Both the position numbers and the translations under genes were made by a program. Shown piece by piece: positions 17-24,591 of a stretch of 43,404 bases of DNA; position 1 is the stretch's first letter, and the number at the start of each line of letters is the position of its first letter. The DNA is from Bacillota bacterium (GTDB taxonomy: Bacteria; Bacillota; Clostridia; Christensenellales; Borkfalkiaceae): contig JAEYEN010000024.1 of assembly GCA_023403375.1 (NCBI GenBank), positions 1 through 43,404 on the forward strand. Reading direction: 5' to 3'. The notes beneath the pieces are model-generated. The model was given only the letters and a program-made list of their open reading frames with translations, did not search any database and was not told the DNA's origin.

Positions 17-715
17 CTAAACGGCAAACACGTGTTGTCCGATAGTTACGGTTGTTCTTCTCGAAAATATCCACGAACTCGTTGCCGTGGACGGATTATA
101 ATAGTAAATCGCGCCGTAGGTGGGGTCCCAGCCGTTCATTGCGTCCTGCGCGGCTTTTTTAGCCGTTGCGTCCGGCGATAAGTTTATCTGCCCGTCGGCA
201 ACCGCCGTAAAGGCATAGGACTGATATATAACGCCTGCCATAGTGTTGGGGAAAGACGAACTTTTAATTCTGTTCATAACCACGGCGCCGACCGCCACTT
301 GTCCCACGTAACTTTCTCCCCTTGCTTCGCCGTAGATTAGTCTTGCAAGTAAGTTTACGTCCGAATTAGAATAAGACGACGAACTGCCGCTGCTCCCCGA
401 CGTGCTCATCCCGAGTGCTTTCAGGGTTTTGTTTCCGACGATACCGTCCGCCGTCAAGCCGTTTTTCTTCTGAAAGGCTATAACCGCTTTTTTGGTCCGG
501 CTTCCGAAAACGCCGTCTACCTTTCCGTTGTAATAACCCCAGTTTTTAAGTTTTTGCTGCAACGTTTTTACGGTTGCGCCCGAGTTGCCCTGTTTTAACG
601 TCGCCGCGCAAACCACTGCGGGTAATTGCGCTTTCGGTAAAAGAAGGGTGGTTGCGAACGTCGAAACGCCAAGCATTAAAACCGCCGCCAAAATTATAGT
701 TATTCTCTTTTTCAT
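17..715 (-). CDS. sleB: SleB-like spore cortex-lytic enzyme (signal/TM segment + peptidoglycan-binding domain + SleB hydrolase domain)
   Basis: 232-aa ORF. Hydrophobic N-terminus, PG-binding repeat ([37 protein letters not shown]), Ser-rich linker, and C-terminal SleB-type motif [22 protein letters not shown]. Overlaps the spoIIR stop by 4 nt. Confidence 0.85.
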
Positions 716-3262: not shown

Positions 3263-3703
3263 TTAATTGTTTTTTTCAAGTTTTTCTTTTATCTCTTTTA
3301 TGGCTTCTTTGTATCCTGCAAAACCCTTACCGCAAACGGTGGTAAACGCGTATAAACTTACGTAACTTTTCTTTCTGAATTCTTCTCTGTTGTTAACGTC
3401 CGTCAGGTGCACTTCCGCCGTCGGAATACCCACCGCTTTCAAAGCGTCTAATATCGCCACGCTCGTATGCGTGTACGCCGCGGGGTTTATCACTATGCCG
3501 TCGTATTTTTTATACGCTTTCTGTATATATTCGCAAATTTTACCTTCATAATTAGAAAACACGCATTTAACCGTAACGCCAAGTTCTTTTGCGGAAGTTT
3601 TAATGTATTTTACCAGCGACTTATAGTCTTGTTTTCCGTAAAGCGCAGGCTCTCTTATCCCCAGCATATTAAGGTTCACGCCGTTAATAACTAAAATCTT
3701 CAT
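3263..3703 (-). CDS. aroQ: 3-dehydroquinate dehydratase, type II
   Basis: 146 aa. Motifs ILVINGVNLNMLGIREPALYG, NPAAYTHTSVAI and HLTDVNNREEFRKKS. Confidence 0.9.
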   Translation of the reverse strand: MKILVINGVNLNMLGIREPALYGKQDYKSLVKYIKTSAKELGVTVKCVFSNYEGKICEYIQKAYKKYDGIVINPAAYTHTSVAILDALKAVGIPTAEVHLTDVNNREEFRKKSYVSLYAFTTVCGKGFAGYKEAIKEIKEKLEKNN

Positions 3704-5069
3704 AAATTTTTACCGCCTTTATAACGCACTCGTCTATCGTAGCGTCGTTTTTAATTTTGTAATCGCAAGTTTTTTCGTATAAATCTTTTCTTTCGCCGAA
3801 AAGTTTTTCTATGCTTTTTTGTCTGGAAACGGGTCTGTTTTTATCGGTAAGAAGCGCCAAATCTCTTTCGATATAGATAACTATGCCGTTTTGGGAAAGC
3901 CGCTTAACGTTTTGCGGACGGACTACCGCGCCGCCGCCCGTCGATATAACGCAGTTCTGTAATGCGGCGACCTTTTTTATAATCTCTTCTTCTATATCGC
4001 GAAACGCCTGTTCGCCGTCTTTTAAGATTATTTCCGCAGCGCTTTTTCCCGTGCTCTTTTTTATCTCTTCGTCAGTGTCGATAAAGGTTTTATTGAGTTT
4101 TTCGGCAAGAATTCTGCCCACCGAAGTTTTCCCGCAGGACGGCATACCCGTAAGCGTTATATTAAGTTTACCGCGGCGAAGTTCCCTGTAAATTCTCTCT
4201 ATAACAAGAACTTCTTCTTCCGAAAGAATTTCTTTTTCCGAAAACGCGGCGCCGTTATCCGACGACGGGCGCCCGTCCGCCGACAAAGCAGTGTCGTTAC
4301 CCAACGGAACGTGTTTATTGCCTGACGAAACGCGTTTGTTGCCTGACGGAACGCGCGCGCCGTCCGATGAAAAACGCTCGCTTTCCCAGATTTTTTCCGC
4401 GGCGACAGCCTGCGCAATCAGCATAGGCAGTCCGCCCGAACATTTTATACCCGCTTTTTCCGAATTCAATATAAGTTGGGTTTTAAGCGGATTGTATCCG
4501 CAGTCGAACACGAATTCTAACCGCTTAAACTTAAAAACGTCTAAAACCGCGCCGTCCAAATCGGGGCTTGTGCCTACGGGCGTGGCGTTTATTATAACTT
4601 CCGTATCGGGCAAAAGGTCGTAACAGTTAGTATAATTTATCTCGCCCGTGCGACTTACGTAATTTACGCTGAGCGCGTTTTTCTTTTTGCAAAGATACTC
4701 GGCGGTTTTTCTCGTTCCGCCGCTACCCGCAATCAGAACGCGCTTGCCCTTCAAGTCCGCTCCCGCACGGGTTACGGCATATTCCATACCCAAAACGTCG
4801 GTATTGAACCCATAATATAACCCACCCGATTTTTTCACGGTGTTAACGCCGCCTATGGCTTCCGCTTCGGGCGACAGATAGTCCATATATTTTAAAACTT
4901 CTTCCTTATACGGAATGGTAACGTTAAATCCGTCGTAAATATTATCGCGCAAAAAACCGTCTAACTTGTCCTGCGGAATCTCTTTAAGCCCGTAATCGAA
5001 CCCGTTTTTTTTATGAATGTCCCCCGAAAAACTGTAAGACAATTTTTTTCCTATCAAGCAATATTTCAT
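3684..5069 (-). CDS. aroE-aroK: Fused shikimate dehydrogenase (N-terminal) / shikimate kinase (C-terminal)
   Basis: 461 aa. The N-terminal ~235 aa are AroE-like (NVTIPYK, GVNTV, GSGGTRKT Rossmann). The C-terminal ~170 aa are AroK-like (P-loop GMPSCGKTSVGR, DTDEEI, STGGG). The two parts are joined by a low-complexity linker. Confidence 0.85.
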   Translation of the reverse strand: MKYCLIGKKLSYSFSGDIHKKNGFDYGLKEIPQDKLDGFLRDNIYDGFNVTIPYKEEVLKYMDYLSPEAEAIGGVNTVKKSGGLYYGFNTDVLGMEYAVTRAGADLKGKRVLIAGSGGTRKTAEYLCKKKNALSVNYVSRTGEINYTNCYDLLPDTEVIINATPVGTSPDLDGAVLDVFKFKRLEFVFDCGYNPLKTQLILNSEKAGIKCSGGLPMLIAQAVAAEKIWESERFSSDGARVPSGNKRVSSGNKHVPLGNDTALSADGRPSSDNGAAFSEKEILSEEEVLVIERIYRELRRGKLNITLTGMPSCGKTSVGRILAEKLNKTFIDTDEEIKKSTGKSAAEIILKDGEQAFRDIEEEIIKKVAALQNCVISTGGGAVVRPQNVKRLSQNGIVIYIERDLALLTDKNRPVSRQKSIEKLFGERKDLYEKTCDYKIKNDATIDECVIKAVKIYEDFSY

Positions 5070-5171
5070 ACAAAATTTTTCCGAAAAATGTTTTGGTCTG
5101 TTTCTTTGTAACGTTTCGGTCTGTCTTTTTTAATTCTGTCGTCGTTTCCGAAACGGCAAGCCGCGTAAAAA

Positions 5172-6314
5172 TTAAACCGTTTCTTTATACGCGCCAAGGA
5201 ATACGAACTTATCGGAGCCGTTTTCCAAATCCGCGATTAAACTCTGAACGTCTTTATTTTTAATGTCGCCTTCGAAATCGAAATAGAACATAAATTCAAA
5301 ATCCGTTCCTTCTATCGGGCGCGATTCGATTTTGGTCATATTAAGCCCTAAGCAAGAAAATCTCATAAGCAGTCTGTTAAGACTTCCCGCAGTATGCGGA
5401 AGAGCGGTCATCAGGCTTATTTTATCGCATCCGTCTATAAGCGCGGGGTCTTTCGATATACAGATAAATCTCGTATAGTTATCCGCAACGTTCTGAATGT
5501 TTCTGTCTATAATTTTAAGTCCGTAACGTTTAGCCGAACGCGGAGAACAGATAACCGCGGCGGTAGTATCGCCGCTTGCCGATAAATTTTTAGCCGCCGC
5601 GGCGGTGTTTGCACATTCTTCTTTTTCTAATTTATGGCTTAAAATGTATTCGGAACACTGCCCCAATGCCTGTGGATGAGAATAGACTTTCTTTATCGCC
5701 CTTTCTTCTGCCAGCGGAAGAGCCGCCAGACAATGCTCTATTTTGAGTTTTGCCGCGCGGACGATATAGAAACGGTGCTTTTTCATCAGGTCGTACACTT
5801 CCGAAACCGAACCGAACGTGCTGTTTTCTATCGGCAACACGCCGTAGTCGCAAAGTCCGCGTTCAACCGCAGAGAAAACGCCGTCAAACGACTTGAAAAA
5901 AGTTACGTCCGAAATGGGGAAGAACTTTTCCGCCGCCGATTCGCTGTACGCGCCTTCCACACCCTGACAGGCAACCGCCGCTCTCACGGGCATTTCTTTA
6001 ACGCCTTCTTCTATGAGTTTTTTCAGCACTTCCACCGTGGGCGAAGATTTTTTTATTATAGCCGACTGGTACGCCTTAGACGCCGCAAAAAGCGTGGCGT
6101 AAAGTTCTTTAACGTACATTTTAAGTTTATCGGGAACGTTTTCGGTAATTCTGTATAAAATCTCCGCTTCTCTCTTCCCGTCGGTAATCTGTGCGTCTGT
6201 TTTGGCTTTTTCTTCCGCCACGAAACCGCAAACCTTAAACCTTTCCAAAAGTTCTTTTATAAGTCTGTCGTCTATTTCGTCTATCTCTTTTCTTAACTGT
6301 TCTAAATCCGCCAC
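5172..6314 (-). CDS. pheA: Bifunctional chorismate mutase / prephenate dehydratase (P-protein) with ACT domain
   Basis: 380 aa. N-terminal CM helix motif LRKEIDEIDDRLIKELLERF, a central PDT domain (VACQGVEGAYSE .. YTRF) and a C-terminal ACT-like region. Confidence 0.85.
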   Translation of the reverse strand: MADLEQLRKEIDEIDDRLIKELLERFKVCGFVAEEKAKTDAQITDGKREAEILYRITENVPDKLKMYVKELYATLFAASKAYQSAIIKKSSPTVEVLKKLIEEGVKEMPVRAAVACQGVEGAYSESAAEKFFPISDVTFFKSFDGVFSAVERGLCDYGVLPIENSTFGSVSEVYDLMKKHRFYIVRAAKLKIEHCLAALPLAEERAIKKVYSHPQALGQCSEYILSHKLEKEECANTAAAAKNLSASGDTTAAVICSPRSAKRYGLKIIDRNIQNVADNYTRFICISKDPALIDGCDKISLMTALPHTAGSLNRLLMRFSCLGLNMTKIESRPIEGTDFEFMFYFDFEGDIKNKDVQSLIADLENGSDKFVFLGAYKETV

Positions 6315-6421
6315 AATTTTTACCGTCCTTTATTTTTTTAATGTTTTTATTATTTTTTGCAATACTGTTTTTAATATCTTTGTTTTGCCAAAGATTATCT
6401 GCCTTTTCGCTTAATATTAAT

Positions 6422-7507
6422 TTAGTTTTGTTTTTTATTTTCCTTTTCAAAAGCGATAATTTCGTCAGTCAGCGCGATTGCCGCCGCGCTTTCTATAACG
6501 GGCACCGCTCTCGGCAGAATACACGCGTCGTGTCTGCCGGCGATTTTTATTTCCGCGTTTGTTTTGTTTACCAAATCCACCGTGCGTTGCAGCTTCGATA
6601 TAGACGGCGTGGGTTTTACTGCAACGCCTATCGTTACGTCTTCTCCGCAAGCAATTCCGCCGTAAATTCCGCCTGCGTTTTCGGAATAAAACTTTATTTT
6701 TCCGTCCTGATAAAACATTTCGTCGTTTACTTCGCTTGCCCTTTTATCGCAAAAAGAAAAGCCAAGTCCGAACTCCACGCCTTTTACCGCAGGCACCGCG
6801 TAAATCGCAGACGATAACATTCCTTCCAGCCCGCCAAACAGGTTATCGCCCATTCCCGCAGGTAGCCCCGATATAACGCACTCTATTCTGCCGCCCACGG
6901 AATCGCCGTCCGCTTTCGCATTTTTTATTTCTTCCGTCATTTCGGCTTTTTTGTCTAACGACGGGTATTCGCCCGTTCTTTTATTTTCAATTTCGTTTAC
7001 CGTTAATTTTCGGTCTTTATACGATAATCCGTTTACGTTGCCCGTTTTTGCGATAAACGCCGCAATACGTATTCCGCGCGCTTCGAGATACTGTTTGCAA
7101 ATACCGCCCACCACGCAAAACGGTGCGGTAAGCCTTCCGGAAAACCTGCCGCCGCCCGTAAAAGACAGCGTTCCGTCTTTAAGATAAGCGCAAATATCTG
7201 CATGATTAGGTCTTGGCTTTCCGTAAAGATTGTCGTAATCTCCGCTTTTAACGTTGCGGTTTAATATATAAAATGAAAACTCGCCGTCGATAGCCCCGTC
7301 GCTTATACCTTCAAAAACAGGTTCGTCCGCTTCTGTCCGCGCGGTCGAAAATACTCCGCCGCCCGCTTTCCGCCGCGATAAAAAGCCGTTAAGTTGGTCA
7401 AAATCGGGCGAGAATTTCGGAAAGCCTTTAACTACCGCGCCGATTTTTTCGGAATGGGATTCCCCGAATATTTCCACGCTTAAATTTTTTCCGTTAAACA
7501 CCGACAT
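6422..7507 (-). CDS. aroC: Chorismate synthase
   Basis: 361 aa. Motifs FGESHS, RPGHAD-like RPNHADI and GRHDACILPRAV. Confidence 0.9.
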   Translation of the reverse strand: MSVFNGKNLSVEIFGESHSEKIGAVVKGFPKFSPDFDQLNGFLSRRKAGGGVFSTARTEADEPVFEGISDGAIDGEFSFYILNRNVKSGDYDNLYGKPRPNHADICAYLKDGTLSFTGGGRFSGRLTAPFCVVGGICKQYLEARGIRIAAFIAKTGNVNGLSYKDRKLTVNEIENKRTGEYPSLDKKAEMTEEIKNAKADGDSVGGRIECVISGLPAGMGDNLFGGLEGMLSSAIYAVPAVKGVEFGLGFSFCDKRASEVNDEMFYQDGKIKFYSENAGGIYGGIACGEDVTIGVAVKPTPSISKLQRTVDLVNKTNAEIKIAGRHDACILPRAVPVIESAAAIALTDEIIAFEKENKKQN

Positions 7508-8912
7508 TTACGTTTTCTCCTAATTTAATCAAATCTTCAAAAAATGCGGGGTAAGATTTTTCCACCGCCTGCGCGCCCGTTATAAGCGTTTCGCCCGTCG
7601 CACCCGCGCCAAGTACCGCCGCCGACATAACCGTTCTGTGGTCGTTTCCGCCGTCCGTTTGAAAGCCTTGCGGCGTTCCGCCCGTGATTTTAATGCTGTT
7701 TCCGTCGAAAACCGCGGCGATTTTCGCTTTTTCAAGCATAGACAAAATCGCTTCTATTCTGTCGCTCTCTTTAACCCTTAACCGTTCCACGTTTTTAAGT
7801 ACGGTAACTCCTTTTGCAAAAGCCGCCACCGCCGATATAACCTGAACCAAATCGGGGATATTTTCGCAATCCAGAGTTATCGCTTTAAGTTTATTTTTCT
7901 TTATCGTAACGCCGCCGTCCGCTTTCCGCACGTTCGCGCCCATTTTTTTGAGTACTTTTACGATTTTTTTGTCGCCCTGCCGCGATTTTAAGTTAAGCCC
8001 TTTAACCGTAACTTCACCGCAAATCGCGCCCAACGACAACATAAACGCCGCGCCCGAAAAATCGCCTTCCGTCAGATATTGCGCGCTGATGTTTTTTGCG
8101 CTTTTTCTACTTTTCGGTATAATTTTATATCCGTCTTTTCGCTTTAAGGTTTTAACGCCGAACGACTTTAATACGCTTCTCGTAACTTCTATATAATTCT
8201 CGCTTACTCTCTTTCCCGTAACCGTTATGCGGCTTGGTTTATCCGTAAAACCCAGCGCCAGCATAAGCCCCGTTACGTATTGAGAACTGACCGAAGCGTC
8301 TATAACGTATTCCCACCGTCTTATATTCGTTGTATTCGCCTCGGTTATATCGCTTTTTTTCTCGGTCTTTTGGCTTTTGCGGTCTGCTATTCCACCGCCC
8401 ACGGAAGCGCCGTTTTTACCGCTTGTCAAACGGTCTTCGGGCGTGCGGTGTGCCCCTCCCCCGTTCTCGGAAGCGCCGCAATTTAACTTTCCCCTTACGG
8501 AAAAGCCGCTGATTTTTGCGCCCTTTTTATTAAGACATTCTATCAACTTGTCCGCAGGGCGGGATAAAAGCCTTTCACCGCCCGTAAAGTCCGCTTTGAT
8601 TCCGAAAGCCGCCGCCACGGGCAATAAAAACCTTAAAGTAGAACCGCTTTCGCCGCAGTCGGCGGTTACTATTCTATCCGTTACGGGGGAAAAAGAATTT
8701 ACCGCAAAATCTCCGTTCTCGATTTTGCAGTCCGCCCCGAAAGATTTTAAGCATCTTGCGGTGGCGAGAACGTCTTTGCTTTCGCCCACGTTTTTAACCG
8801 TTATTTTTTTCCCGCTTAAAGCCGCCGCAATCATCAGCCTGTGCGCAAGCGTTTTAGAAGGCGGCGCGTTAATCGTGCCCGAAATTTCGGCAGGACAGAT
8901 TTTTACATTCAT
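7494..8912 (-). CDS. aroA: 3-phosphoshikimate 1-carboxyvinyltransferase (EPSP synthase) with an internal ~50-aa insertion
   Basis: 472 aa. Motifs PPSKTLAHR, GESGSTLRFL, DASVSSQY and KESDR. Overlaps aroC and aroB at both ends. Confidence 0.9.
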   Translation of the reverse strand: MNVKICPAEISGTINAPPSKTLAHRLMIAAALSGKKITVKNVGESKDVLATARCLKSFGADCKIENGDFAVNSFSPVTDRIVTADCGESGSTLRFLLPVAAAFGIKADFTGGERLLSRPADKLIECLNKKGAKISGFSVRGKLNCGASENGGGAHRTPEDRLTSGKNGASVGGGIADRKSQKTEKKSDITEANTTNIRRWEYVIDASVSSQYVTGLMLALGFTDKPSRITVTGKRVSENYIEVTRSVLKSFGVKTLKRKDGYKIIPKSRKSAKNISAQYLTEGDFSGAAFMLSLGAICGEVTVKGLNLKSRQGDKKIVKVLKKMGANVRKADGGVTIKKNKLKAITLDCENIPDLVQVISAVAAFAKGVTVLKNVERLRVKESDRIEAILSMLEKAKIAAVFDGNSIKITGGTPQGFQTDGGNDHRTVMSAAVLGAGATGETLITGAQAVEKSYPAFFEDLIKLGENVNVGV

Positions 8913-9940
8913 TTAACGTATTCTCCAAGTTTGCTTACGGAAAGGTTTTCTATACGGGCGGTCCCCGTTTTGTCGGATGTTATAAAACTTATCTCGTCGC
9001 CCTTTCTTTTTTTGTCGCTTTTTATCGCTTCCAAAAGTTTATCCGTTTCATACTCGCAATCGGGGTTTATGCCGAGCGATTCTGCTTCTTTTAAGAATTC
9101 TTGTAACTCTTCGCCGTCTTTGTTATAAAACTTTTTTGATAGAATAAGCGCGTATTTAATGCCTTTTACAACGCATATCCCGTGCGGAAGTTTATAACCC
9201 GAAACCTTTTCTATCGCGTGACCGAACGTATGCCCGAAGTTTAAAAGTTTACGTTCTCCGCTTTCTAACTCGTCCTTTTCTACTATGTCCGCTTTAATTT
9301 TAAGACAGTCGTAAATAAGTTGTTCGGTTATATCCGCAATTTTTCCGCCCGAATATTTTTTCTTGAATTCGGGCGATATATAAGTATACTTGATTATCTC
9401 GCCAAGTCCGTTTCTAATCTCTTTTTCGGGCAGTGTTTTCAAAAATTCCAGATTGACGTAAACTGCCGACGGCTGATAAAAAGTGCCGCAAAGATTTTTG
9501 CCTGCCTTTAAGTCTACCGCCGTCTTTCCGCCGATAGACGAATCCACCATTGATAAAAGCGAAGTCGGAAAAGCCACAAGCGTTATTCCGCGCATATAGG
9601 TAGACGCAACGAACGCGCCCAAATCGCCTGCAACGCCGCCGCCGAGCGTTACTATCCCGTCCTCTCTCGTAAACCCGTCTTTTGCGAGTTTATTAAGGAT
9701 TTTATTATAGTTTTTAATGTTTTTACTCTTTTCGCCGTGTTTTATCGTGTATAAAAACACTTTTTTTCCGTCAAACACCGCCTTTACCTTTTCAAAATAA
9801 AGTTTTGCGGTTATATCGTCCGCCACAATTCCTATTTTTTCGCCTTTGAACAGCGGCCTGCATACGCTTTTTGCGGCGGAAAGGTCGCTTGCGATTGTAA
9901 CGGAATAAATTTTGGCGGCGTTTACTTTAAGTGTCAACAT
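8909..9940 (-). CDS. aroB: 3-dehydroquinate synthase
   Basis: 343 aa. Motifs GGGVAGDLGAFVASTYMRG, GGKTAVDL and HTFGHAIE. Confidence 0.9.
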   Translation of the reverse strand: MLTLKVNAAKIYSVTIASDLSAAKSVCRPLFKGEKIGIVADDITAKLYFEKVKAVFDGKKVFLYTIKHGEKSKNIKNYNKILNKLAKDGFTREDGIVTLGGGVAGDLGAFVASTYMRGITLVAFPTSLLSMVDSSIGGKTAVDLKAGKNLCGTFYQPSAVYVNLEFLKTLPEKEIRNGLGEIIKYTYISPEFKKKYSGGKIADITEQLIYDCLKIKADIVEKDELESGERKLLNFGHTFGHAIEKVSGYKLPHGICVVKGIKYALILSKKFYNKDGEELQEFLKEAESLGINPDCEYETDKLLEAIKSDKKRKGDEISFITSDKTGTARIENLSVSKLGEYVK

Positions 9941-9987
9941 AAAATTTCTTTCCCTTTTCGGTTTTTTCTTTAATTTGGCGGACGTCT

Positions 9988-10833
9988 TTATTTTTTGCCT
10001 TTAACGTCTAAATATAATTTGCGCTCGTTGCCTTCGTATAAAAGTTTATAAAGCGTTTCGCTGTCTTTGTTTTTAAGCGCGGATAAGTATTTGTTAAGGT
10101 TATCTATCAGTTCGGATAGTTCGCTTGACAGATTGTCGGCGTTTTCCGTCATCAGTTCCGTCCACATTTGCGGGTTTAATCTCGCCACTCGCGTCATATC
10201 TTTATAACTTCCCGCAGAAAAACCGTCGTGCGATTCCGCGCTTTTGTTTTTTATAAACGCATTGGACAAAACGTGGCAAAGTTGAGAAGTGAACGCGATT
10301 TCTTCGTCGTGCCTTTCCGCCGAACAGATTTCAACGTTCTTAAAGCCTAACGAAAGATAGAATTTTTTAAGTTCTTCAAGTTTGAAAATATCGGCGTTCA
10401 CGTTTACGAGAATCATAGACGCGCCCTCAAAAAGCGTTGCGGTGGAGTGGTCTATACCCGAAAATTCGCGCCCTGCCATGGGGTGGCCGCCGACGAAAAT
10501 TATATCCTTATATTTTTCGGAAAAGGCTTTCATCGTTTTAACGACGCCGCGCTTGATTCCGCAAAAATCGGTAACCACCGCGCCCTTTTTTAAGTGCGGC
10601 AGATATTTTTCCAGAATACTTTCCACTTTATCGGGCGTTACCGCAAGGATAAGCATATCGAGTTTTGCGGCGCTCTTTTCGTCCAACTTTTCGGACACGG
10701 CGTGGAGAAGTTCGGCTTTTAAGAACGCGCTGTCCGACAGGTCTTCGCCGTAAACCTTAAAGCCGCCCTTTGTATAAAGCGTTCTTCCGAAAGAACCGCC
10801 CATTAAACCTAAACCTACGATACCTATATTCAT
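9988..10833 (-). CDS. tyrA: Prephenate dehydrogenase
   Basis: I chose the start at MNIGIVGLGLMGGSFG (ATG at 10833) because it forms an ATGA overlap with the aroF stop. The 32-codon N-terminal extension in the ORF track lies inside aroF and is Arg-rich junk. Confidence 0.85.
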   Translation of the reverse strand: MNIGIVGLGLMGGSFGRTLYTKGGFKVYGEDLSDSAFLKAELLHAVSEKLDEKSAAKLDMLILAVTPDKVESILEKYLPHLKKGAVVTDFCGIKRGVVKTMKAFSEKYKDIIFVGGHPMAGREFSGIDHSTATLFEGASMILVNVNADIFKLEELKKFYLSLGFKNVEICSAERHDEEIAFTSQLCHVLSNAFIKNKSAESHDGFSAGSYKDMTRVARLNPQMWTELMTENADNLSSELSELIDNLNKYLSALKNKDSETLYKLLYEGNERKLYLDVKGKK

Positions 10834-11846
10834 AATATACACTTCTTTCCGCAAATGGGGAGCATTACGTTTACGCAATGCGTTATATCGTCGAACTGTT
10901 CGGGACGAACGGACTGCGCGCCGTCGCAAAGAGCGTGCGGCGGGTCGTTATGCACTTCTATCATAAGTCCGTCCGCACTTGCGCCGACGGAAGCGAGCGA
11001 TAACGGTTTTACAAGCCTGCTTAACCCCGAAGCGTGCGACGGGTCTACGATTACGGGTAAATGCGTTAATTCTTTAAGCACGGGGATTGCCGATAAATCA
11101 AGCGTGTTTCTGGTATACGGCTCGAACGTTCTTATTCCCCTTTCGCAAAGCACCACGTCTTTGCTGCCTTCCGACATAATGTATTCCGCACTCATAAGCC
11201 ACTCTTCTATGGTATTGCAGAATCCTCTTTTAAGCAAAACGGGTTTGCCCGTCTTTCCCACTTCTTTTAAGAGTTCGTAGTTTTGCATATCCCTTGCGCC
11301 AATCTGAATCAGGTCTACGTCTTTAAATAAGTCTATGTGGCGAACGCTCATAATTTCGGTAACAATGGGAAGTCCCGTTTCTTCTTTCGCTTTAAGCAGA
11401 AGTTCCAGCCCCGTTTCCCTTAACCCCTGGAAAGAGTAAGGCGAAGTTCTGGGTTTGAACGCGCCGCCCCTTAAAAGTTTTGCGCCCGACTTTTTAACCG
11501 ACTGCGCGATTTCCACAATCTGTTTTTCCGTTTCGACCGAACACGGCCCCGCGACAACCGTAAAATTATCGCCGCCTATTTTAACGCCCGAAACGTCTAC
11601 AATCGTGTCTTCGGGGTGGAATTTTCTGTTGGCGAGTTTAAAAGGTTCCTGAATTCTTTTAACGCTTTCCACTATGTCCAAAGAGCGAACGAGGTCGATG
11701 TCGATTTTGCTGGTATCGCCGATAAGCCCTAAAACGGTGGAGTGGCTGCCGTTACTTACGTCAACTTCCAAGCCCTGCTTTTTAACCCAATCTATAAGGT
11801 TTTTTAACTGTTTTTCTTCTCTGTCCTGTTTTACGATGATAATCAT
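10830..11846 (-). CDS. aroF: 3-deoxy-7-phosphoheptulonate (DAHP) synthase, type I-beta with an N-terminal regulatory-like domain
   Basis: 338 aa. Motifs GPCSVE, KPRTSPYSFQGL and DPSHA. An extra ~70-aa N-terminal domain resembles that of Thermotoga/Bacillus-type DAHPS. Confidence 0.9.
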   Translation of the reverse strand: MIIIVKQDREEKQLKNLIDWVKKQGLEVDVSNGSHSTVLGLIGDTSKIDIDLVRSLDIVESVKRIQEPFKLANRKFHPEDTIVDVSGVKIGGDNFTVVAGPCSVETEKQIVEIAQSVKKSGAKLLRGGAFKPRTSPYSFQGLRETGLELLLKAKEETGLPIVTEIMSVRHIDLFKDVDLIQIGARDMQNYELLKEVGKTGKPVLLKRGFCNTIEEWLMSAEYIMSEGSKDVVLCERGIRTFEPYTRNTLDLSAIPVLKELTHLPVIVDPSHASGLSRLVKPLSLASVGASADGLMIEVHNDPPHALCDGAQSVRPEQFDDITHCVNVMLPICGKKCIL

Positions 11847-11878
11847 ATCTGCACCCGTTAAAAAATAAAATTATAAAT

Positions 11879-11906
11879 AAAAAAACGACCGATTGATTTA
11901 TCGGTC
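11879..11906 (-). terminator. Attenuator terminator in the aro operon leader
   Basis: The minus strand reads GACCGAT-AAATCA-ATCGGTC-G-TTTTTTT, 32 nt upstream of the aroF ATG. The 5' arm can alternatively pair with ATCGGTTA at 11947-11954. Confidence 0.6.
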
Positions 11907-11955
11907 ATTTTATAAACACTTAATAAAAATAAAAGCACGAAAAAAATAACCGATA

Positions 11956-12012
11956 TTAACAATATGGTCTGATAAAGTAATATTCAAAATAAAAAGCGGA
12001 TAAAACTTTCAT
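11956..12012 (-). CDS. Candidate aromatic-rich leader peptide MKVLSAFYFEYYFIRPYC (18 aa)
   Basis: ATG preceded by AAGGA about 9 nt upstream and by a TTGACA-17-TATACT promoter. 7 of 18 codons are Phe or Tyr. The stop codon is 1 nt from the antiterminator arm. Confidence 0.55.
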   Translation of the reverse strand: MKVLSAFYFEYYFIRPYC

Positions 12013-12032
12013 ATTCGTGTTCCTTTTCTTTC

Positions 12033-12061
12033 AGTATATTATCATTTATTTTTCGTGTCAA
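12033..12061 (-). promoter_or_regulatory. Sigma-A promoter of the aro leader/operon
   Basis: Minus strand TTGACA (12056-12061), 17-nt spacer, TATACT (12033-12038). Confidence 0.6.
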
Positions 12062-12103
12062 CCTTTTTTCGACTGAATTTTTTAAAATTTTTGTCGCAAA
12101 CGT

Positions 12104-12132
12104 TTGACAACGCATATAAATATTGATATAAT
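12104..12132 (+). promoter_or_regulatory. Consensus sigma-A promoter of the T-box/trpB2 transcript
   Basis: TTGACA (12104-12109), 17-nt spacer, TATAAT (12127-12132). Confidence 0.7.
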
Positions 12133-12138
12133 CGGCTT

Positions 12139-12420
12139 AAATTAAACCTTTGATACAGAGTAGTAACTGTTTATCGGACGTTAAGAGAGTTTTGGGTTGG
12201 TGCGACAAAACCGTTTATATTCAGCGAATGGACTGTTGAGGGCAAACGAACGGCAAACTTTTTGCCAAGTAGCAATTGACGGGTTGCGCCCGTTAAAGCG
12301 CATTGCGTATGATAGTACGTTAAAGAGAACGTGTAAACGTTAATTTGGGTGGCACCGCGGAATTATTCGTCCCAAAAGCAATTTTGCTTTTGGGATTTTT
12401 TGTTTTTTTTCGGAGGCAGT
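12139..12420 (+). promoter_or_regulatory. T-box riboswitch leader with Trp specifier (UGG)
   Basis: AGAGA/GGTGCGA stem I elements. Specifier loop GCGAA-TGG-A with UGG at 12229-12231. F-box-like CCCGTTAA. T-box sequence AATTTGGGTGGCACCGCGG (12342-12360). Terminator TCCCAAAAGCA-ATTT-TGCTTTTGGGA plus a T-run (12370-12420). Confidence 0.85.
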
Positions 12421-12673: not shown

Positions 12674-14047
12674 ATGGATAAGAAAATACCTTATAAAATA
12701 TATTTAGAAGAAAAAGAGATGCCGAAAAGTTGGTATAACGTCCGCGCGGATATGAAAGTTAAACCCGCGCCCCTTCTTAACCCCGCAACGGGCAAACCCG
12801 CCACGCTTGAAGAACTTTCTCACGTTTTCTGCAAAGAACTTGCGGAGCAGGAATTGAACAACGACGACGCTTATATCGAAATTCCCGAAGAGATAAGGGA
12901 TTTTTACAAAATGTATCGTCCGTCTCCGTTGGTGAGAGCGTATTGCTTGGAGAAAAAGTTGGGCACGCCCGCGCACATTTACTATAAATTTGAAGGAAAC
13001 AACACTTCCGGTTCGCACAAACTCAACAGCGCGATTGCGCAGGCTTATTACGCTAAAAAAGAAGGTCTTACGGGAGTTACCACCGAAACGGGCGCAGGAC
13101 AGTGGGGCACGGCGCTTTCCATGGCTTGCTCTTACTTCGACTTAAAATGCGACGTGTTTATGGTAAAGTGTTCTTACGAACAAAAGCCTTTCCGTCGTGA
13201 AGTTATGAGAACTTACGGCGCGAACGTTACCCCCTCGCCTTCTATGACGACGGAAATAGGTAAAAAAATAAACGCGGAATTCCCCGGAACTTCGGGTTCT
13301 CTCGGTTGCGCTATATCGGAAGCGGTTGAGAAAGCGGTTACCACGCCCAACACCAGATACGTTTTAGGCTCCGTTTTAAGTCAGGTTCTTTTGCACCAGT
13401 CGATAATCGGATTAGAAACCAAAGCCGCATTCGACAAGATTGGCGTTAAGCCCGATATTATTATCGGTTGCGCAGGCGGCGGCTCCAACCTTGGCGGTCT
13501 TATCTCTCCCTTCGTCGGCGAAATGTTAAGGGGCGAAGCGAAATACGACATTATTGCGGTTGAACCTGCTTCTTGTCCGTCGCTTACACGCGGTAAATAC
13601 GCTTACGACTTCTGCGATACGGGTAAAGTTTGTCCGCTCGCTAAAATGTACACTCTCGGCAGTTCGTTCATTCCTTCCGCTAATCACGCAGGCGGATTAA
13701 GATACCACGGTATGAGTTCGGTTGTTTCCGAACTTTACGACCAAGGCTATCTGACCGCGCGCTCCGTAGAACAGACGGAGGTTTTCAAAGCGGCGGAAGA
13801 GTTTGCAAGAGTTGAAGGTATTCTCCCCGCACCCGAAAGCAGCCACGCTATCAAAGTTGCGATAGACGAAGCGCTTAAATGCAAAGAAACGGGCGAAGAA
13901 AAGAACATCGTTTTCGGCCTTACCGGCACGGGCTATTTCGATATGGTTGCATACAACAAGTATAACGACGGCGTTATGGGCGACTACATTCCCACCGACG
14001 AAGAAATTAAAAAGAGTCTTGATAAACTCCCCGTCGTAAACAAATAA
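12674..14047 (+). CDS. trpB: TrpB2-type tryptophan synthase beta-like PLP enzyme (stand-alone)
   Basis: 457 aa, the long TrpB2 form. PLP-lysine motif GSHKLNSA and GGGSN loop. AAAGGAG ribosome-binding site. No trpA adjacent. Confidence 0.9.
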   Translation: MDKKIPYKIYLEEKEMPKSWYNVRADMKVKPAPLLNPATGKPATLEELSHVFCKELAEQELNNDDAYIEIPEEIRDFYKMYRPSPLVRAYCLEKKLGTPAHIYYKFEGNNTSGSHKLNSAIAQAYYAKKEGLTGVTTETGAGQWGTALSMACSYFDLKCDVFMVKCSYEQKPFRREVMRTYGANVTPSPSMTTEIGKKINAEFPGTSGSLGCAISEAVEKAVTTPNTRYVLGSVLSQVLLHQSIIGLETKAAFDKIGVKPDIIIGCAGGGSNLGGLISPFVGEMLRGEAKYDIIAVEPASCPSLTRGKYAYDFCDTGKVCPLAKMYTLGSSFIPSANHAGGLRYHGMSSVVSELYDQGYLTARSVEQTEVFKAAEEFARVEGILPAPESSHAIKVAIDEALKCKETGEEKNIVFGLTGTGYFDMVAYNKYNDGVMGDYIPTDEEIKKSLDKLPVVNK

Positions 14048-14119: not shown

Positions 14120-14370
14120 CTTTGCGGTTTTATTGTCGCCGTCAGCGGATTTTTGCCGTTATCTTCGATTTCACCGCCGCTTTGTAACAGGTTTTTTTGC
14201 TTTTCAAATATATAGTGTTAGATAAATTAAATTTATGTGTATTTTTAGTAAATTATTAAAAAAATATACAAAGTTAAAAAAAAGTATGTTATACTGATTA
14301 TAAAGATTGCAGATACTCTTGGTTTTACTCCACAGCAATCTTTCAGAATTTGTCAATAAGGAGGAAAAAT

Positions 14371-16194
14371 ATGACAAAGAAATACTTTATTTGGGCGTTT
14401 GTATTAGCCTTTATGTTGTTGGTGCCCGCAATGTTTCTGTTTTCGGCTTGCGGGAAACATGAACATTCATTTAGTGGTGATTGGTCTAAATCAGAAACTC
14501 AACATTGGCATGATTGCACAGACAAAAATTGTGAAGAAAAAAACGACTTGGCTGATCACGACTTTGTTTGGGTTGAAAAGACCCCTGCCGGTGTCCACAC
14601 CGACAAAGTAGAAACAGGCACTTGCTCAACCTGTCAATATCAAAAAGACAGAACAATCGCAGGTTCGGGCGACAACATTCATACTTGGGAAAGAAAAAGT
14701 GATGAAACTAAACATTGGGAACAAACAACCTGTACCCAACACGACGCAATTAAAAGAAACGAAGAAGCTCATTCTTGGGAATGGAAAGCCAACGACCAAA
14801 AACATTGGCAAGAAACAACCTGCGAACTAGAAACTCCATTACAACAAAATGAGCAAGACCATACTTGGGTATATGAGTCAGAAGGCGAATTAACTCACAA
14901 ACGCCAAACCAACTGTGGCGAAGAAAAACACGCACTAAGAATAGAAACTAACATTGCACACAGATATACAGATGAAAACGATGTTGATTGTAACGACTGT
15001 GGTTATGTTAGAAGTATTGCCGGCAAAGGTTCCTTTGGCACACTTTCAGCAAAAACATACAATGCCGGAGCACAAGGTGTTGCTTCAAGCGATTACACAG
15101 TTGCTGAAGCAATAAAAGATCTTTGCGAAATTCAATACAAAGTGAAAGGTGCAAACGATAGCACCTACACCACAACAGCTCCTACAAATGCAGGAACTTA
15201 TGAAGTAAGAATTTACTGCAGAGGAAATGATACTTATCTAAAAGGCGAAGTTGCAAAAACAGATTATGTAATCAATAAATACAAAGTTGAAATTGCTAGA
15301 GGTTTAAGTTTTAAGGTTGCTTACAACAAAGCAGCTATGGAAGATCCTAATGTTCAATATATACATTTAGGAACTGTTACCGTATCTGAAGGTTTAGTTG
15401 AACCTGTTGACGTTCCAATTAAAGCACCAAAGAGAGACGACAACAAAAATCCTGGAAGAAATCCAATTTATGTTGAATACTTATTAACTGAAGATGACAA
15501 TTTCGCAATTAAGGAATTGCCACCAAGTGACACTAATAGAAAAGTTAATTTAGTTCACTATAACGACAGCGTTGTAGCAACATTAACAAGTAAAGATGAA
15601 ACAAATGTTAAATGGGACGAGACCAAAGAACAAGTTGGTATTACTGTTAATAGAGTTAACAACGGAACAATAAGAGTTGGTGACTATATGATTTGCGAGG
15701 GTTATGCAACACCTCTAGAAGTAGTTGCCTTAAAATTGGAATATAATGTTCCTACTGACATGTTAGTAAATGCCGACAGAAACTGTGAGATATATTTTGA
15801 CTATAGTAGTTTTGCTGATTTAGACGCTGCAAAAACTATTTTGGCAAACAAAACCTTTACAGAAGTTGAAACTCTTAACTTTGTAGAAGGCGAAAATTAT
15901 ACCAACACTGTAAGCAGACAACTAAACAAAGGCGAAAAATTTTATCTTGTATTCACTACAGAAGCTTCTGAAAATCTAAAAACTTATAAATTAAATTTTG
16001 ACACAAATGGAACAGGCTATGTGACAACTAGTGACTCGGTTGTTTTCTATAGAGAAGATGGATCTGGTGTTTCCGGGGGATACGAACTACACGTACAAAC
16101 ACCTGACGGAGTGTTATATTTTGTTACAGTAACAAAAACTGCCGACTGTGAGGCAGGAAAAGAAAGTGTAGATTTCTATATCACTAAAAGATAA
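14371..16194 (+). CDS. Surface lipoprotein with His/Trp/Cys-rich N-terminal repeats and an MBG/Ig-like adhesin-type region
   Basis: I chose the start at the ATG 7 nt after GGAGG (14371). Signal peptide with lipobox LFSAC. Six H-x-W..HW..C repeats. TAPTNAGTYEVRIY motif. CpG content is markedly lower than in flanking genes. Confidence 0.75.
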   Translation: MTKKYFIWAFVLAFMLLVPAMFLFSACGKHEHSFSGDWSKSETQHWHDCTDKNCEEKNDLADHDFVWVEKTPAGVHTDKVETGTCSTCQYQKDRTIAGSGDNIHTWERKSDETKHWEQTTCTQHDAIKRNEEAHSWEWKANDQKHWQETTCELETPLQQNEQDHTWVYESEGELTHKRQTNCGEEKHALRIETNIAHRYTDENDVDCNDCGYVRSIAGKGSFGTLSAKTYNAGAQGVASSDYTVAEAIKDLCEIQYKVKGANDSTYTTTAPTNAGTYEVRIYCRGNDTYLKGEVAKTDYVINKYKVEIARGLSFKVAYNKAAMEDPNVQYIHLGTVTVSEGLVEPVDVPIKAPKRDDNKNPGRNPIYVEYLLTEDDNFAIKELPPSDTNRKVNLVHYNDSVVATLTSKDETNVKWDETKEQVGITVNRVNNGTIRVGDYMICEGYATPLEVVALKLEYNVPTDMLVNADRNCEIYFDYSSFADLDAAKTILANKTFTEVETLNFVEGENYTNTVSRQLNKGEKFYLVFTTEASENLKTYKLNFDTNGTGYVTTSDSVVFYREDGSGVSGGYELHVQTPDGVLYFVTVTKTADCEAGKESVDFYITKR

Positions 16195-16558: not shown

Positions 16559-16737
16559 TTCTTGCCATTTGCAAAGCATTTGCTAAACCCCCTTTTTGTT
16601 GCTTTGCAAATGACTTCGGTCATCGCTGAAAACTTGCCACAGGCAACTTTTCCCGCCCTGCGGCGCTCTCATTCGAATTCCTTATTCTTACTTTGTTCTA
16701 ACAAAAAAAGACGGAAAGTAATTCCGTCTTTTTTTGT

Positions 16738-16963: not shown

Positions 16964-17040
16964 TGGTGCGCCATAAGGAATTCGAATCCCTAGCCTTTGG
17001 TTCCGTAGACCAACGCTCTATCCAGTTGAGCTAATGGCGC
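16964..17040 (-). tRNA. tRNA-Arg (anticodon ACG), CCA encoded
   Basis: Folds by hand as a cloverleaf: acceptor GCGCCAT/ATGGCGC, D arm GCTC-AACTGGATA-GAGC, anticodon arm TTGGT-CTACGGA-ACCAA, T arm AGGGA-TTCGAAT-TCCTT, then ACCA. Followed by a terminator hairpin (16925-16961). Confidence 0.9.
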
Positions 17041-21863: not shown

Positions 21864-21962
21864 GGAATAATGATAAATTTTAACTTTTTTTACCTGTTTT
21901 TCGCCTTGCGTTTTCGTTTAACAAAAAATATAACGCAAAATTAAAGTAAGCCCCCGAATTAA

Positions 21963-22095
21963 GGTCTGAAAATAACGTCCGTAAATAAAGTTCCCGAACA
22001 ACGTCTTTAAAAAAGGCCCCCGAAAATTCCGGGATACCGTCCTTAATACCGTCTTTGACACGTCTTTGATAGCGTCCTTAGCACAGTCCTTGATT
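21963..22095 (+). repeat. Helically phased direct repeats CGTCYTTRA
   Basis: Copies start at 22038, 22050, 22061, 22073 and 22085 (spacing 11-12 bp). Looser copies occur at 21976 and 22002, and GCCCCCGAA occurs twice. Confidence 0.7.
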
Positions 22096-22174
22096 CGGTG
22101 TCATTAAAAAAGCGGCAGTTTTACCCCGTTCAGAACGTTTATAAAAAAATTGCTTCTATTTGTTCATCATATTA

Positions 22175-22203
22175 TTGATTTTTAGCCAAAATAACGCTAT
22201 AAT
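22175..22203 (+). promoter_or_regulatory. Sigma-A promoter of serS
   Basis: TTGATT, 17 nt, TATAAT. Confidence 0.55.
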
Positions 22204-22257
22204 GTTTGTTGAATTAAATTTCGGAAAACATTCGGGAGAAAACATTCGGAGAAAATT

Positions 22258-23544
22258 ATGTTAGATTTAAAAAGAATTCTGAAAGAGAAAGAAAAAATCG
22301 AAGAACTTTTGTCGAGAAAGGGCTACAAAGCCGATTTTGACCGCATAATCTCGCTTGACGCGGAAAGAAGAAAAGTCATCGGCGAAGTGGAAACTCTTAA
22401 AGCGGAAAGAAACAAAGTTTCGGCGGAAATTCCCAAACTTAAAAAAGAAGGAAAGCCCGTAGACGGCATATTTGCGGATATGCGCGCTCTGGGCGAAAAG
22501 ATTGCGGAAGGCGATAAAAAAGCAAACGAATTGGACGAACAGATTTTTAACGCGCTTGCCGTTATGCCGAATATTCCCGACGAAGACCTGCTTGCAGGCG
22601 AAAAGGAAAACAATCGGGTTATAAAAGTTGTCGGCGAAAAACCCGTTTTCGATTTTGCGGCGCAAAACCACGTAGATATTTGCAACAAGTTAGGAATTAT
22701 CGATTATCAACGCGGCGTTAAACTTTCGGGCGGCGGCTTCTGGCTTTACAGGGGCGACGGCGCAAGGCTGGAATGGGCGCTTCTTAATTTCTTTATTTCG
22801 GAACACTTAAAAGACGGGTACGAATTTATACTTCCACCCCACCAGTTAGGTTATACGTGCGGTTTCGGTGCGGGGCAGTTCCCCAAATTCTCCGACGAAG
22901 TTTACTGGCTTGATTGCGACGAAGACAGAAAGAAAAACAGATTTATGTTACCTACTGCGGAAACGGCGCTTGTCAACATGTATTCGGGCGAAATTATCGA
23001 CGAAGACAAACTCCCGATGAAATTCTTTGCTTACACCCCCTGCTATCGTAAAGAAGCGGGTTCTTACAGGGCGGAAGAACGCGGAATGATAAGGGGACAT
23101 CAATTCAACAAAGTGGAAATGGTTCAATACGCGCACCCCGAACACAGTAAAGAAGCCTTTGAAGAACTTGTAAACAAAGCGGCGTCTTTAATGGAAAAAT
23201 TAGGGTTGCATTTCAGAATAAGTAAACTTGCCGCGGGCGATTGTTCCGCGTCTATGGCGAGAACTTACGATATAGAAGTCTGGATTCCTTCTATGGGAAT
23301 TTATAAAGAAGTAAGTTCGGTTTCCAACGCCAACGACTATCAGGCAAGAAGAAACAATACCAAATACCGCGACAGTAAAACGGGCAAACCCGCTTACGTT
23401 CACACGCTCAACGGGTCGGGGCTTGCCACCAGCAGAGTTTTCCCCGCGATAATCGAACAGTTCCAGAACGCCGACGGAAGCGTTACGATTCCCGAAGTGT
23501 TAAGACCGTTTATGGGCGGGCAGGAAGTAATAAAAGCAAAATAA
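22258..23544 (+). CDS. serS: Serine--tRNA ligase
   Basis: 428 aa. N-terminal coiled-coil arm and class II motifs (FMLPTAE, YTPCYRKEAGS, LNGSGLATSR). Confidence 0.93.
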   Translation: MLDLKRILKEKEKIEELLSRKGYKADFDRIISLDAERRKVIGEVETLKAERNKVSAEIPKLKKEGKPVDGIFADMRALGEKIAEGDKKANELDEQIFNALAVMPNIPDEDLLAGEKENNRVIKVVGEKPVFDFAAQNHVDICNKLGIIDYQRGVKLSGGGFWLYRGDGARLEWALLNFFISEHLKDGYEFILPPHQLGYTCGFGAGQFPKFSDEVYWLDCDEDRKKNRFMLPTAETALVNMYSGEIIDEDKLPMKFFAYTPCYRKEAGSYRAEERGMIRGHQFNKVEMVQYAHPEHSKEAFEELVNKAASLMEKLGLHFRISKLAAGDCSASMARTYDIEVWIPSMGIYKEVSSVSNANDYQARRNNTKYRDSKTGKPAYVHTLNGSGLATSRVFPAIIEQFQNADGSVTIPEVLRPFMGGQEVIKAK

Positions 23545-23572
23545 AAAAGAGCGGGTTTTCACCCGCTTTTTT
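23545..23572 (+). terminator. Rho-independent terminator after serS
   Basis: GCGGGT-TTTC-ACCCGC followed by TTTTTT. Confidence 0.8.
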
Positions 23573-23814
23573 AATAAGAAAATTTTATTATAAGCATTTT
23601 TCGGTAAAAACTTTTTGCGGAATTTATCGGGAGTTTGTTTATAAAAGTTGACAAAACGGATATTACATTTTAACCTGTAAATTGCATATAATAAAAATAG
23701 GCTTTTTACGTTTTACCGAAAAACAACTATAAACGAATATAAACGAAAGACGTGCGATTGTAAAATTCGTTTGTAACACACAACTAAAAACATTGTGCTA
23801 AAAGGAGATAAATT

Positions 23815-24405: not shown

Positions 24406-24564
24406 AACTTTAAGATAAGTTTTCAACAAACTCTCAACTCAATCCCGATTGATTTTAATCTATTTTCGATATAAAACATAATCCGTTTCGGGGCAATTTT
24501 TAACGAATTTCATTGAGTTTTATTGAGATTGTTTTTAAATGAGCATTTGATAATAAAAAAAGAA

Positions 24565-24591
24565 AAAGACCGCTTTTAAAAAGCGGTCTTT
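24565..24591. terminator. Bidirectional terminator between the LOG gene and the MATE gene
   Basis: AAAGACCGCTT-TTAAA-AAGCGGTCTTT flanked by A- and T-runs. Confidence 0.7.

Follow-up and report, generated by a model that had tools for sequence, protein, structure and literature searches.

The 43,404-nucleotide (nt) stretch of DNA analysed here, hereafter the window, comprises positions 1 to 43,404 of contig JAEYEN010000024.1 (assembly GCA_023403375.1) from a member of the Borkfalkiaceae (Clostridia; Christensenellales). It contains, on the minus strand, a short leader upstream of aroF, the first regulated gene of an operon for aromatic amino acid biosynthesis. This leader is very probably a ribosome-mediated (leader-peptide) transcription attenuator of the aroF-tyrA-aroB-aroA-aroC-pheA-aroE/K-aroQ operon, which would read the supply of charged tRNA-Phe and tRNA-Tyr, i.e. 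of phenylalanine (Phe) and tyrosine (Tyr), through translation of a small open reading frame (ORF). What the sequence analysis shows are the individual elements, the mutually exclusive helices with their computed energies, and a shared arrangement of ORF, terminator and antiterminator among relatives.

Sequence organization of the aroF leader

A sigma-70-type promoter is followed by an AAGGA Shine-Dalgarno sequence and by an 18-codon ORF, MKVLSAFYFEYYFIRPYC (Table 1), which, judging from these sequence features, is predicted to be translated. The promoter pattern, TTGAC(A/T)-17-TATA(C/A)T, is kept at four relative loci (L001-L003 and L081; loci of relatives are given L numbers throughout). Six of the codons in the run from codon 7 to codon 13 are aromatic (F7, Y8, F9, Y11, Y12 and F13), so that the clustering described in the first-pass annotation stands while its count of five does not. 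A single U separates the TAA stop codon from ATCGGTTA (in RNA, AUCGGUUA) at positions 11954-11947. That annotation had proposed pairing of this strand with the 5′ arm of the downstream terminator, which we also found, over 13 base pairs (bp) instead of the 8 bp given. The terminator scan returned a 12-pair stem with a 6-nt loop and a T tail, the stem and U tract together spanning 11911-11879, and the distance from the terminator to the aroF ATG (11846) is exactly 32 nt. The promoter, the AAGGA sequence, the ORF, the strand past the stop codon, the terminator and the 32-nt gap thus all lie at the coordinates originally assigned to them. Altogether, the leader holds the full set of regions 1 to 4 of an attenuator, and the 1:2, 2:3 and 3:4 pairings can all be formed.

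The ORF itself is unlikely to have arisen by composition alone, as an ATG-initiated ORF with at least six aromatic codons per eight was found in 0.85% of shuffles of this 250-nt upstream region. Just one further short ATG-ORF anywhere in the 43-kb window attains 6/8 aromatic codons, that at 21870 (see below).

Mutually exclusive structures and proposed mechanism

Region 2, which starts 1 nt past the stop codon, pairs with region 3 over 13 bp to give the 2:3 antiterminator (-14.6 kcal/mol), and this helix is part of the minimum-free-energy fold of the leader. Region 3 is at the same time the 5′ arm of the 3:4 terminator hairpin (-13.9 kcal/mol). The 1:2 hairpin, in which ACCAUAU pairs with AUAUCGGU (11968-11962 with 11956-11949), has an energy of -4.1 kcal/mol and carries the stop codon within or beside its loop. 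When whole-leader conformers were compared, the one with the antiterminator reached -22.7 kcal/mol versus -18.6 kcal/mol for the one with the terminator; an outer 1:4 helix (GACC..AUUG with CAAU.GGUC, within 11879-11968) adds to the former. Since the antiterminator conformer is more stable by about 4 kcal/mol, the leader seems to be 'default-on' in the absence of a ribosome, and termination would probably have to be imposed by a terminating ribosome. Relative to dinucleotide shuffles, the leader fold has a z-score of -2.9, and the antiterminator duplex scores between -3.5 and -4.0.

The first-pass annotation had suggested folding the leader under constraints for the two conformers. We ran these folds with ribosome footprint sizes taken from general knowledge, and both gave the structure anticipated. 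That is, the terminator formed when the RNA was masked through 10 nt past the stop codon. With the mask of a ribosome whose A site holds F13, region 2, which lies 21 nt from the start of codon 13, was left free and the antiterminator formed.

According to the mechanism that we propose, transcription would start from the TTGACA/TATACT promoter and a ribosome would translate the 18-codon leader. With ample Phe and Tyr, the ribosome would reach the UAA codon, where a footprint extending about 10 nt past the stop would cover region 2 (UAUCGGUUA...), the 3:4 terminator would form, and transcription would stop 32 nt before aroF. If charged tRNA-Phe or tRNA-Tyr were scarce, the ribosome would instead stall in codons 7-13, covering at most region 1, and region 2 would be free to pair with region 3 in the 13-bp antiterminator, allowing RNA polymerase to continue into the operon. 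The translation of the leader, the ribosome footprints, any pausing of the polymerase at a U run (see below) and the response to Phe and Tyr are the parts of this model that we infer.

Conservation of the leader ORF in relatives

To place the leader in an evolutionary context, 160 loci with AroF relatives were taken among the matches listed, 80 from genomes and 80 from metagenomes. The metagenome matches listed were mostly 62-73% identical, a broad set of little use for fine covariation. The closest AroF relatives among the matches listed (88-80% identity) belong to metagenome-assembled genomes of Christensenellaceae/Catabacter-like Clostridia. ORF statistics refer to 148 upstream regions of 250 nt or more, one being that of the window and 147 coming from the 160 loci. 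An ATG-ORF with at least five aromatic codons per 8-codon window was present in 121 of them (82%), compared with 1.8% of shuffles; at a threshold of 6/8, the figures were 70% of loci and 0.24% of shuffles. The conservation of the aromatic codon run that the first-pass annotation had proposed to look for upstream of aroF is therefore borne out.

Both the ORF and an intrinsic terminator before aroF were found together at 124 loci, representing 109 distinct leaders. These loci were chosen for having both elements, which means that the terminator is present in all of them by selection; most loci without a leader ORF, though, also lack a terminator. The median spacing is 40 nt from the stop codon to the terminator and 31 nt from the terminator to aroF. 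The 109 leaders contain in total 483 Phe, 450 Tyr and 8 tryptophan (Trp) codons, and all but two (107/109) have at least two Phe plus at least two Tyr codons. Leaders dominated by Tyr also exist, such as L015 (AYYYYYGY) and L031 (YNYYYYY).

Several features indicate that the signal lies in a translated frame. A Shine-Dalgarno-like 4-mer precedes 86 of the 109 leader ORFs (79%) versus 21% of the other ATGs in the same regions, and in the best stretch of eight codons the aromatic count is 6.3 in frame versus 1.6 in the other two frames. Both synonymous codons of each pair occur while amino acid identity is kept (222 UAC and 154 UAU; 273 UUU and 37 UUC), the third codon position of the run being nearly always a pyrimidine. 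The peptides are 12-43 amino acids (aa) long, and their sequence outside the aromatic run varies freely.

Carriers are found in records labelled Christensenellaceae, Oscillospiraceae, Acutalibacteraceae, Lachnospiraceae and Peptococcaceae, and cultured ones include Oscillibacter valericigenes, Angelakisella massiliensis and Pseudoflavonifractor. Where a carrier locus extends far enough downstream (60 loci), tyrA directly follows aroF in 53 cases. Among the loci without a leader ORF, 20 were scanned for known RNA families, and only one match was obtained: at L141 a T-box (331-602, plus strand) stands before aroF in place of the Phe/Tyr small ORF, while the other 19 gave none. This exchange of one regulator for another at L141 has known parallels in other amino acid operons.

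The leader itself matched no known RNA family. At the gathering score, no Rfam 15 family matched it in a scan of the whole window, nor did any match the leaders of 20 diverse carrier loci, and a permissive scan (E up to 10) of positions 11800-12140 yielded neither a leader family nor any match to the leader. The Rfam leader families in question include, for example, the enterobacterial Phe, Trp and His leaders. Likewise, the Rfam scans revealed no stem I, specifier loop or T-box sequence (RF00230) in the aroF leader, the sole T-box of the region being on the opposite strand at 12141-12377.

Alternative helices in relatives

The seven closest leaders (that of the window, L001-L005 and L081) were aligned and folded with RNAalifold, and the consensus consisted of the 1:2 hairpin plus the 3:4 terminator. 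Standard pairs occupy 91.7% of alignment cells for the 1:2 plus 3:4 structure and 85.7% for the 2:3 structure, falling to 27-50% when the partners are slid by 1-3 columns; for region 1 in the 1:2 hairpin, 89.8% of cells are paired. The main case of covariation is L003, where AUCGG/CCGAU has become AUACGG/CCGUAU in regions 2, 3 and 4 together. In the 1:2 hairpin there are no pairs changed on both sides, and this hairpin is not clearly recoverable in distant relatives. Given the low variation in the seven-sequence alignment, we put the weight on the replacement of helices across sub-families and on a comparison of cognate with non-cognate strands.

Of the 15 nearest short-peptide relatives, 13 carry a region 2 that begins 0-6 nt past the stop codon and forms a duplex with the terminator 5′ arm (z = -2.5 to -5.7); weaker duplexes among the 15 are those of L005 (z = -1.5) and L006 (not significant). 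The region 2 sequences themselves differ across these relatives (AUCGGUUA, AUACGGUUA, AGCGGUCGU, UAUCGGCUG, UGGCUCC and GUGCGGUUU). Examples of region 2 with its region 3 are AGCGGUCGU with GCGACCG in L007 (z = -2.6), UAUCGGCUGUUU with AAGCGGUCGAUA in L083 and L085 (z = -4.7 and -5.7, respectively), UGGCUCC with GGAGCUG in L016 (z = -3.0), GUGCGGUUUU with AAAACCGC in L017 (z = -3.2), GUGCGGU with ACCGCAC in L089 (z = -4.0), and GCGUGCGGU with ACCGUUACGC in L008 (z = -3.0). Across relatives, the strand past the stop codon thus appears to change in step with the terminator arm. Of the compensatory changes sought in the first-pass annotation, then, strict pair covariation turned out to be thin in the seven closest leaders, and what was found is the replacement of entire helices across sub-families.

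Comparisons over all 109 leaders gave a similar picture. Terminator arms pair more strongly with the upstream region of their own locus than with those of the other 108 leaders (mean percentile 0.36, Wilcoxon p = 1e-6), and the upstream strand of the window is the best binder of all 109. In folds ending before region 4, 70% of the terminator 5′ arm is sequestered by upstream sequence versus 56% in shuffles (p = 1e-8). The long-peptide families (mostly Oscillospiraceae-like) have region 2 embedded in the ORF, at its 3′ end; an example is UUGUGCUGCA, which is translated as ...CC... in the tail of the peptide. These families would appear to follow the same logic with a different geometry. Moreover, a covariance model built from the seven closest leaders (R1) weakly finds other aroF leaders at 17-32 bits (L016, L087, L008, L006, L009, L007, L025, L085, L017 and L088); the alignment derived from R1 is too poor near helix 1:2 and was not used for pair counts. 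Taken with the conservation of the ORF and terminator and with the masked folds, the complementarity supports in silico the leader-peptide attenuation logic of the first-pass annotation.

One further element of the leader is a run of seven U residues (U7, 11946-11940) located directly 3′ of the 1:2 hairpin. This run may be a pause site synchronising RNA polymerase and ribosome, or it could be the remnant of an ancestral region 2. In close relatives the U run followed by GCGU/CGUG takes the form UUAUUUUUUGCGUAC, 3′ of region 2 (L001, L002, L004, L005, L081 and many other loci), and the conservation of ...UUUUUUGCGUAC among close relatives points the same way as the pause-site idea. A motif akin to the U run, UUUG[CU][GU], is found in 54 of the 109 leaders where 17.9 would be expected; it forms the antiterminator strand in distant families and lies outside all predicted helices in the sub-family of the window.

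Alternative explanations

A number of observations weigh against the dual-sensing attenuator as proposed. The 1:2 hairpin is weak and the antiterminator conformer beats the terminator conformer (-4.1, -22.7 and -18.6 kcal/mol, as given above), so that termination would need a tight timing of the terminating ribosome relative to RNA polymerase. Among the seven closest leaders the helices are mostly invariant, covariation amounting to three pairs changed on both sides per structure, and the score observed for helix 2:3 was reached by 28 of 500 shuffles. For the more distant families with long peptides, the simple duplex test frequently fails to reach significance (median z of -0.4 over 66 loci). 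Finally, dual sensing is not guaranteed in view of the Phe-only effect described for Corynebacterium glutamicum aroR (PMC11802643).

This last point leads to the serious rival, namely that the attenuator senses one amino acid only, e.g. Phe, the Tyr codons being tolerated or forming a mere U/A-rich, structure-poor stretch. The sole experimentally studied aroF leader, aroR, responds to Phe limitation and not to Tyr (PMC11802643), which lends this explanation some substance. We nevertheless consider it unlikely, because Tyr is about as common as Phe in the 109 leaders, nearly all of which keep at least two codons of each kind, because some leaders (e.g. L015 and L031) are dominated by Tyr, and because the gene that directly follows aroF is usually tyrA (53/60 loci). 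A different possibility is that the small ORF is incidental and that a trans-acting RNA-binding protein or a small ligand reads the U/A-rich triplets, in the manner of TRAP or a riboswitch. While a UUU/UAY triplet repeat could in principle be a protein-binding array, the ATG, the Shine-Dalgarno-like sequence and the in-frame stop are conserved, the signal is frame-specific, and the pyrimidines at third positions preserve Phe/Tyr identity. Furthermore, no conserved ligand-binding fold was found beyond the alternative hairpins, nor any Rfam family match, and in the short-peptide relatives the position of region 2 follows that of the stop codon. Such a mechanism is accordingly improbable.

Even less credence can be given to two other explanations. 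The hairpin with its U tract could be a constitutive leaky terminator, an mRNA-stabilising structure or the terminator of another transcript, everything else being chance, and the stem does also score as a weak plus-strand terminator. However, the neighbouring gene is divergent, so no upstream minus-strand gene ends here, and the co-occurrence of ORF and terminator at 124 loci, the lack of a terminator at most loci without the ORF and an antiterminator complementarity far above chance make this explanation very improbable. The same very low likelihood applies to the Phe/Tyr-rich micropeptide being functional itself, for example as a hydrophobic regulatory or membrane peptide. Peptide tails are indeed kept in some sub-families (R/K-P-Y-x in the group of the window, GKAYFGLAE, and ...S.S..CC), but length and non-aromatic sequence otherwise vary freely, and the kept tails coincide with RNA regions 1 and 2: the Pro codon CCA/CCG pairs with GGU/CGG of region 2, and the Cys-Cys codons UGCUGC mimic the 3′ arm of the terminator. 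Ribosome-mediated attenuation therefore remains the reading that we favour for the aroF leader.

Comparison with known systems

The mechanism is not new, being classical ribosome-mediated attenuation. The E. coli pheA leader (pheL; Rfam Phe_leader) and the pheST leader (pheM) are classical four-region attenuators with Phe-rich leaders of 14-15 codons. As in the mechanism proposed here, region 2 is hidden once a ribosome terminates, and the 2:3 antiterminator can form when a ribosome stalls; pheL and pheM differ in having Phe codons only and in controlling a single gene or a synthetase. The trp and pheA leaders of E. coli terminate in the absence of translation owing to a strong 1:2 hairpin. 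The leader of the window, by contrast, has a weak 1:2 hairpin, and its predicted thermodynamic ground state is the antiterminator. T-box riboswitches (RF00230) serve the same goal, i.e. the sensing of tRNA charging, with the same terminator/antiterminator output, whereas sensing here would go through translation of a leader.

The nearest functional parallel is the aroR leader peptide of C. glutamicum, which contains Phe-Tyr-Phe and was shown experimentally to attenuate the aroF operon (Neshat et al. 2014, as related in PMC11802643). According to the same account, a stalled ribosome raises read-through transcription, and limitation for Phe raised transcription while Tyr availability was without effect (PMC11802643). 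Both aroR and the Clostridia leaders are short leaders with adjacent Phe and Tyr codons before the gene for 3-deoxy-7-phosphoheptulonate (DAHP) synthase. The actinobacterial aroR has 3 regulatory codons where the Clostridia leaders have 6-8, and the operon in the window, unlike that of aroR, also has tyrA, pheA and the whole common pathway.

Closer in lineage is the uORFC-13-1 motif, predicted upstream of aroF in Acholeplasma and environmental sequences (24 sequences; Brewer et al. 2021, PMC8632094). Compared by description only, it resembles the Clostridia leaders in having a small upstream ORF with a promoter, a ribosome-binding site and Phe codon(s), and an adjacent intrinsic terminator, before aroF in a Firmicutes-allied lineage; it differs in being reported from Acholeplasma only and with 'at least one' Phe codon, no Tyr run being reported (PMC8632094). 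Leader-peptide attenuators of his genes are also known in Firmicutes, namely in the Bacillus cereus group, Clostridioides difficile and Erysipelotrichales (PMC2965389, PMC9413887). These are likewise of the 'regular' leader-peptide type and replace T-boxes before amino acid operons, but they concern another amino acid and another operon, have a much narrower reported distribution and show no sequence relationship to the aroF leaders. Leader-peptide control of aromatic genes, presented in the first-pass annotation as unusual for Firmicutes, is thus less exotic than implied, given the his leader peptides of Firmicutes and the aroF leaders predicted in Acholeplasma and documented experimentally in C. 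glutamicum (PMC2965389, PMC9413887, PMC8632094, PMC11802643).

Full-text searches of a literature collection retrieved no description of an aroF leader peptide in Clostridia, and the leader studied here is representative of a large family that is absent from Rfam 15. We tentatively raise the possibility, itself rather doubtful, that these leaders constitute a large undescribed, 'default-on', dual Phe-/Tyr-tRNA-sensing family through which several lineages of gut and rumen Clostridia chiefly control their shikimate/Phe/Tyr operon. Such a family would span records labelled Christensenellaceae, Oscillospiraceae, Lachnospiraceae and others, and termination would be imposed by the ribosome on region 2, unlike in the default-off trp and pheA leaders of E. 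coli. Were this confirmed, the annotation of gut and rumen Clostridia would gain a widespread cis-regulatory family, and the shikimate/Phe/Tyr pathway of these Firmicutes would prove to be under classical leader-peptide attenuation and not under T-boxes. The small ORFs would then deserve annotation as leader peptides, not neglect or the label 'hypothetical protein', and the family would be suitable for Rfam. A putative natural sensor of both Phe and Tyr, whose two specificities could be separated, also matters in that aroR, the only aroF leader studied, answered to Phe alone (PMC11802643). The logic will not surprise a specialist; what is moderately noteworthy is the breadth of the family, the strict Phe plus Tyr composition and the apparent default-on energetics.

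Operon, neighbouring genes and other features

The genes downstream of the leader are closely spaced or overlapping and lie on one strand (Table 1). According to NCBIfam matches, they cover the common shikimate pathway plus the Phe and Tyr branches, and include no trp genes. The description 'aromatic supraoperon' in the first-pass annotation was consequently right as to an aromatic operon and loose as to the term; both pheA and tyrA are encoded, as stated there. The pheA product is a chorismate mutase fused to a prephenate dehydratase. The aroE-aroK fusion is a single ORF of 461 aa (3684-5069, minus strand), with AroE at residues ~3-232 and AroK at residues ~300-457.

Table 1. Features of the aroF leader and operon in the window
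Feature	Coordinates	Strand	Basis
Sigma-70-type promoter: -35 TTGACA (12061-12056), 17-nt spacer, -10 TATACT (12038-12033)	12033..12061	(-)	Consensus scan, 11/12 positions matched
Shine-Dalgarno sequence AAGGA, 8 nt 5′ of the leader ATG	12021..12025	(-)	Sequence reading
Predicted leader ORF MKVLSAFYFEYYFIRPYC, 18 codons + TAA; ATG 12012, TAA 11958-11956	11956..12012	(-)	Sequence; Phe/Tyr-rich homologous ORFs before aroF at 124 loci
Regulatory codon run, codons 7-13: UUU UAU UUU GAA UAU UAC UUU (F Y F E Y Y F)	11974..11994	(-)	Sequence
Region 1, ACCAUAU (codons 15-17); partner is the 5′ part of region 2	11962..11968	(-)	Folding
Region 2, UAUCGGUUAUUUU; antiterminator 5′ strand, starts 1 nt past the stop codon	11943..11955	(-)	13 nt, 92% complementary + one G-U
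U7 run (11946-11940) then CGUGC, directly 3′ of the 1:2 hairpin	11934..11946	(-)	Sequence
Region 3, AAAAUGACCGAUA; both terminator 5′ arm and antiterminator 3′ strand	11899..11911	(-)	Terminator scan and folding
Region 4, AUCGGUCGUUUU + remaining U tract; terminator 3′ arm and tail	11879..11893	(-)	Terminator scan
Intrinsic terminator GACCGAT-AAATCA-ATCGGTC-GTTTTTTT (RNA tail GUUUUUUU)	11906-11879	(-)	Scan
aroF (3-deoxy-7-phosphoheptulonate synthase, DAHP synthase), first regulated gene	10830..11846	(-)	NCBIfam NF006421, E = 1e-146
Rest of operon: tyrA, aroB, aroA, aroC, pheA, aroE-aroK fusion, aroQ	3263..10929	(-)	NCBIfam

On the other side of the leader, a divergent plus-strand gene encodes a TrpB-like protein (trpB2-like, 12674-14047). 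Its transcript had been said to carry a T-box, and one was indeed found at 12141-12377 (plus strand, 123 bits), with the specifier UGG (Trp). The promoter of this T-box (12104-12132, plus strand) is a perfect TTGACA-17-TATAAT with an upstream TG, and stands back to back with the promoter of the aroF leader, 42 bp apart. One 830-bp intergenic region would therefore hold both a T-box that reads Trp and a leader peptide that reads Phe/Tyr.

Candidates for further attenuators in the window were rejected. Weak matches to the R1 model at 24508-24647, 23538-23631 and 16679-16733 are ordinary GC-stem/U-tract terminators after or between genes; the genes around them are serS, the pair of a LOG-family gene and a MATE gene, and an ORF of 614 aa. 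The latter ORF has a TTG start (14350-16194, plus strand), gave no NCBIfam match at E = 1e-10, and has the trpB-like gene on one side and a tRNA-Arg(ACG) gene (16964-17040, minus strand) on the other. A candidate second aromatic leader, a 24-codon Phe-rich ORF at 21870 (MINFNFFYLFF...), lies ~320 nt upstream of serS with no terminator logic and was judged to be due to chance.

No T-box precedes serS (22258-23544) in the region upstream of it (21870-22260, plus strand). Its 440-nt upstream region contains about six copies of CGTC(T/C)TT (21975-22093) and three copies of ...CCCCCGAA, and two exact copies of GAAAACATTCGG (22224-22249) stand directly before the serS start codon.

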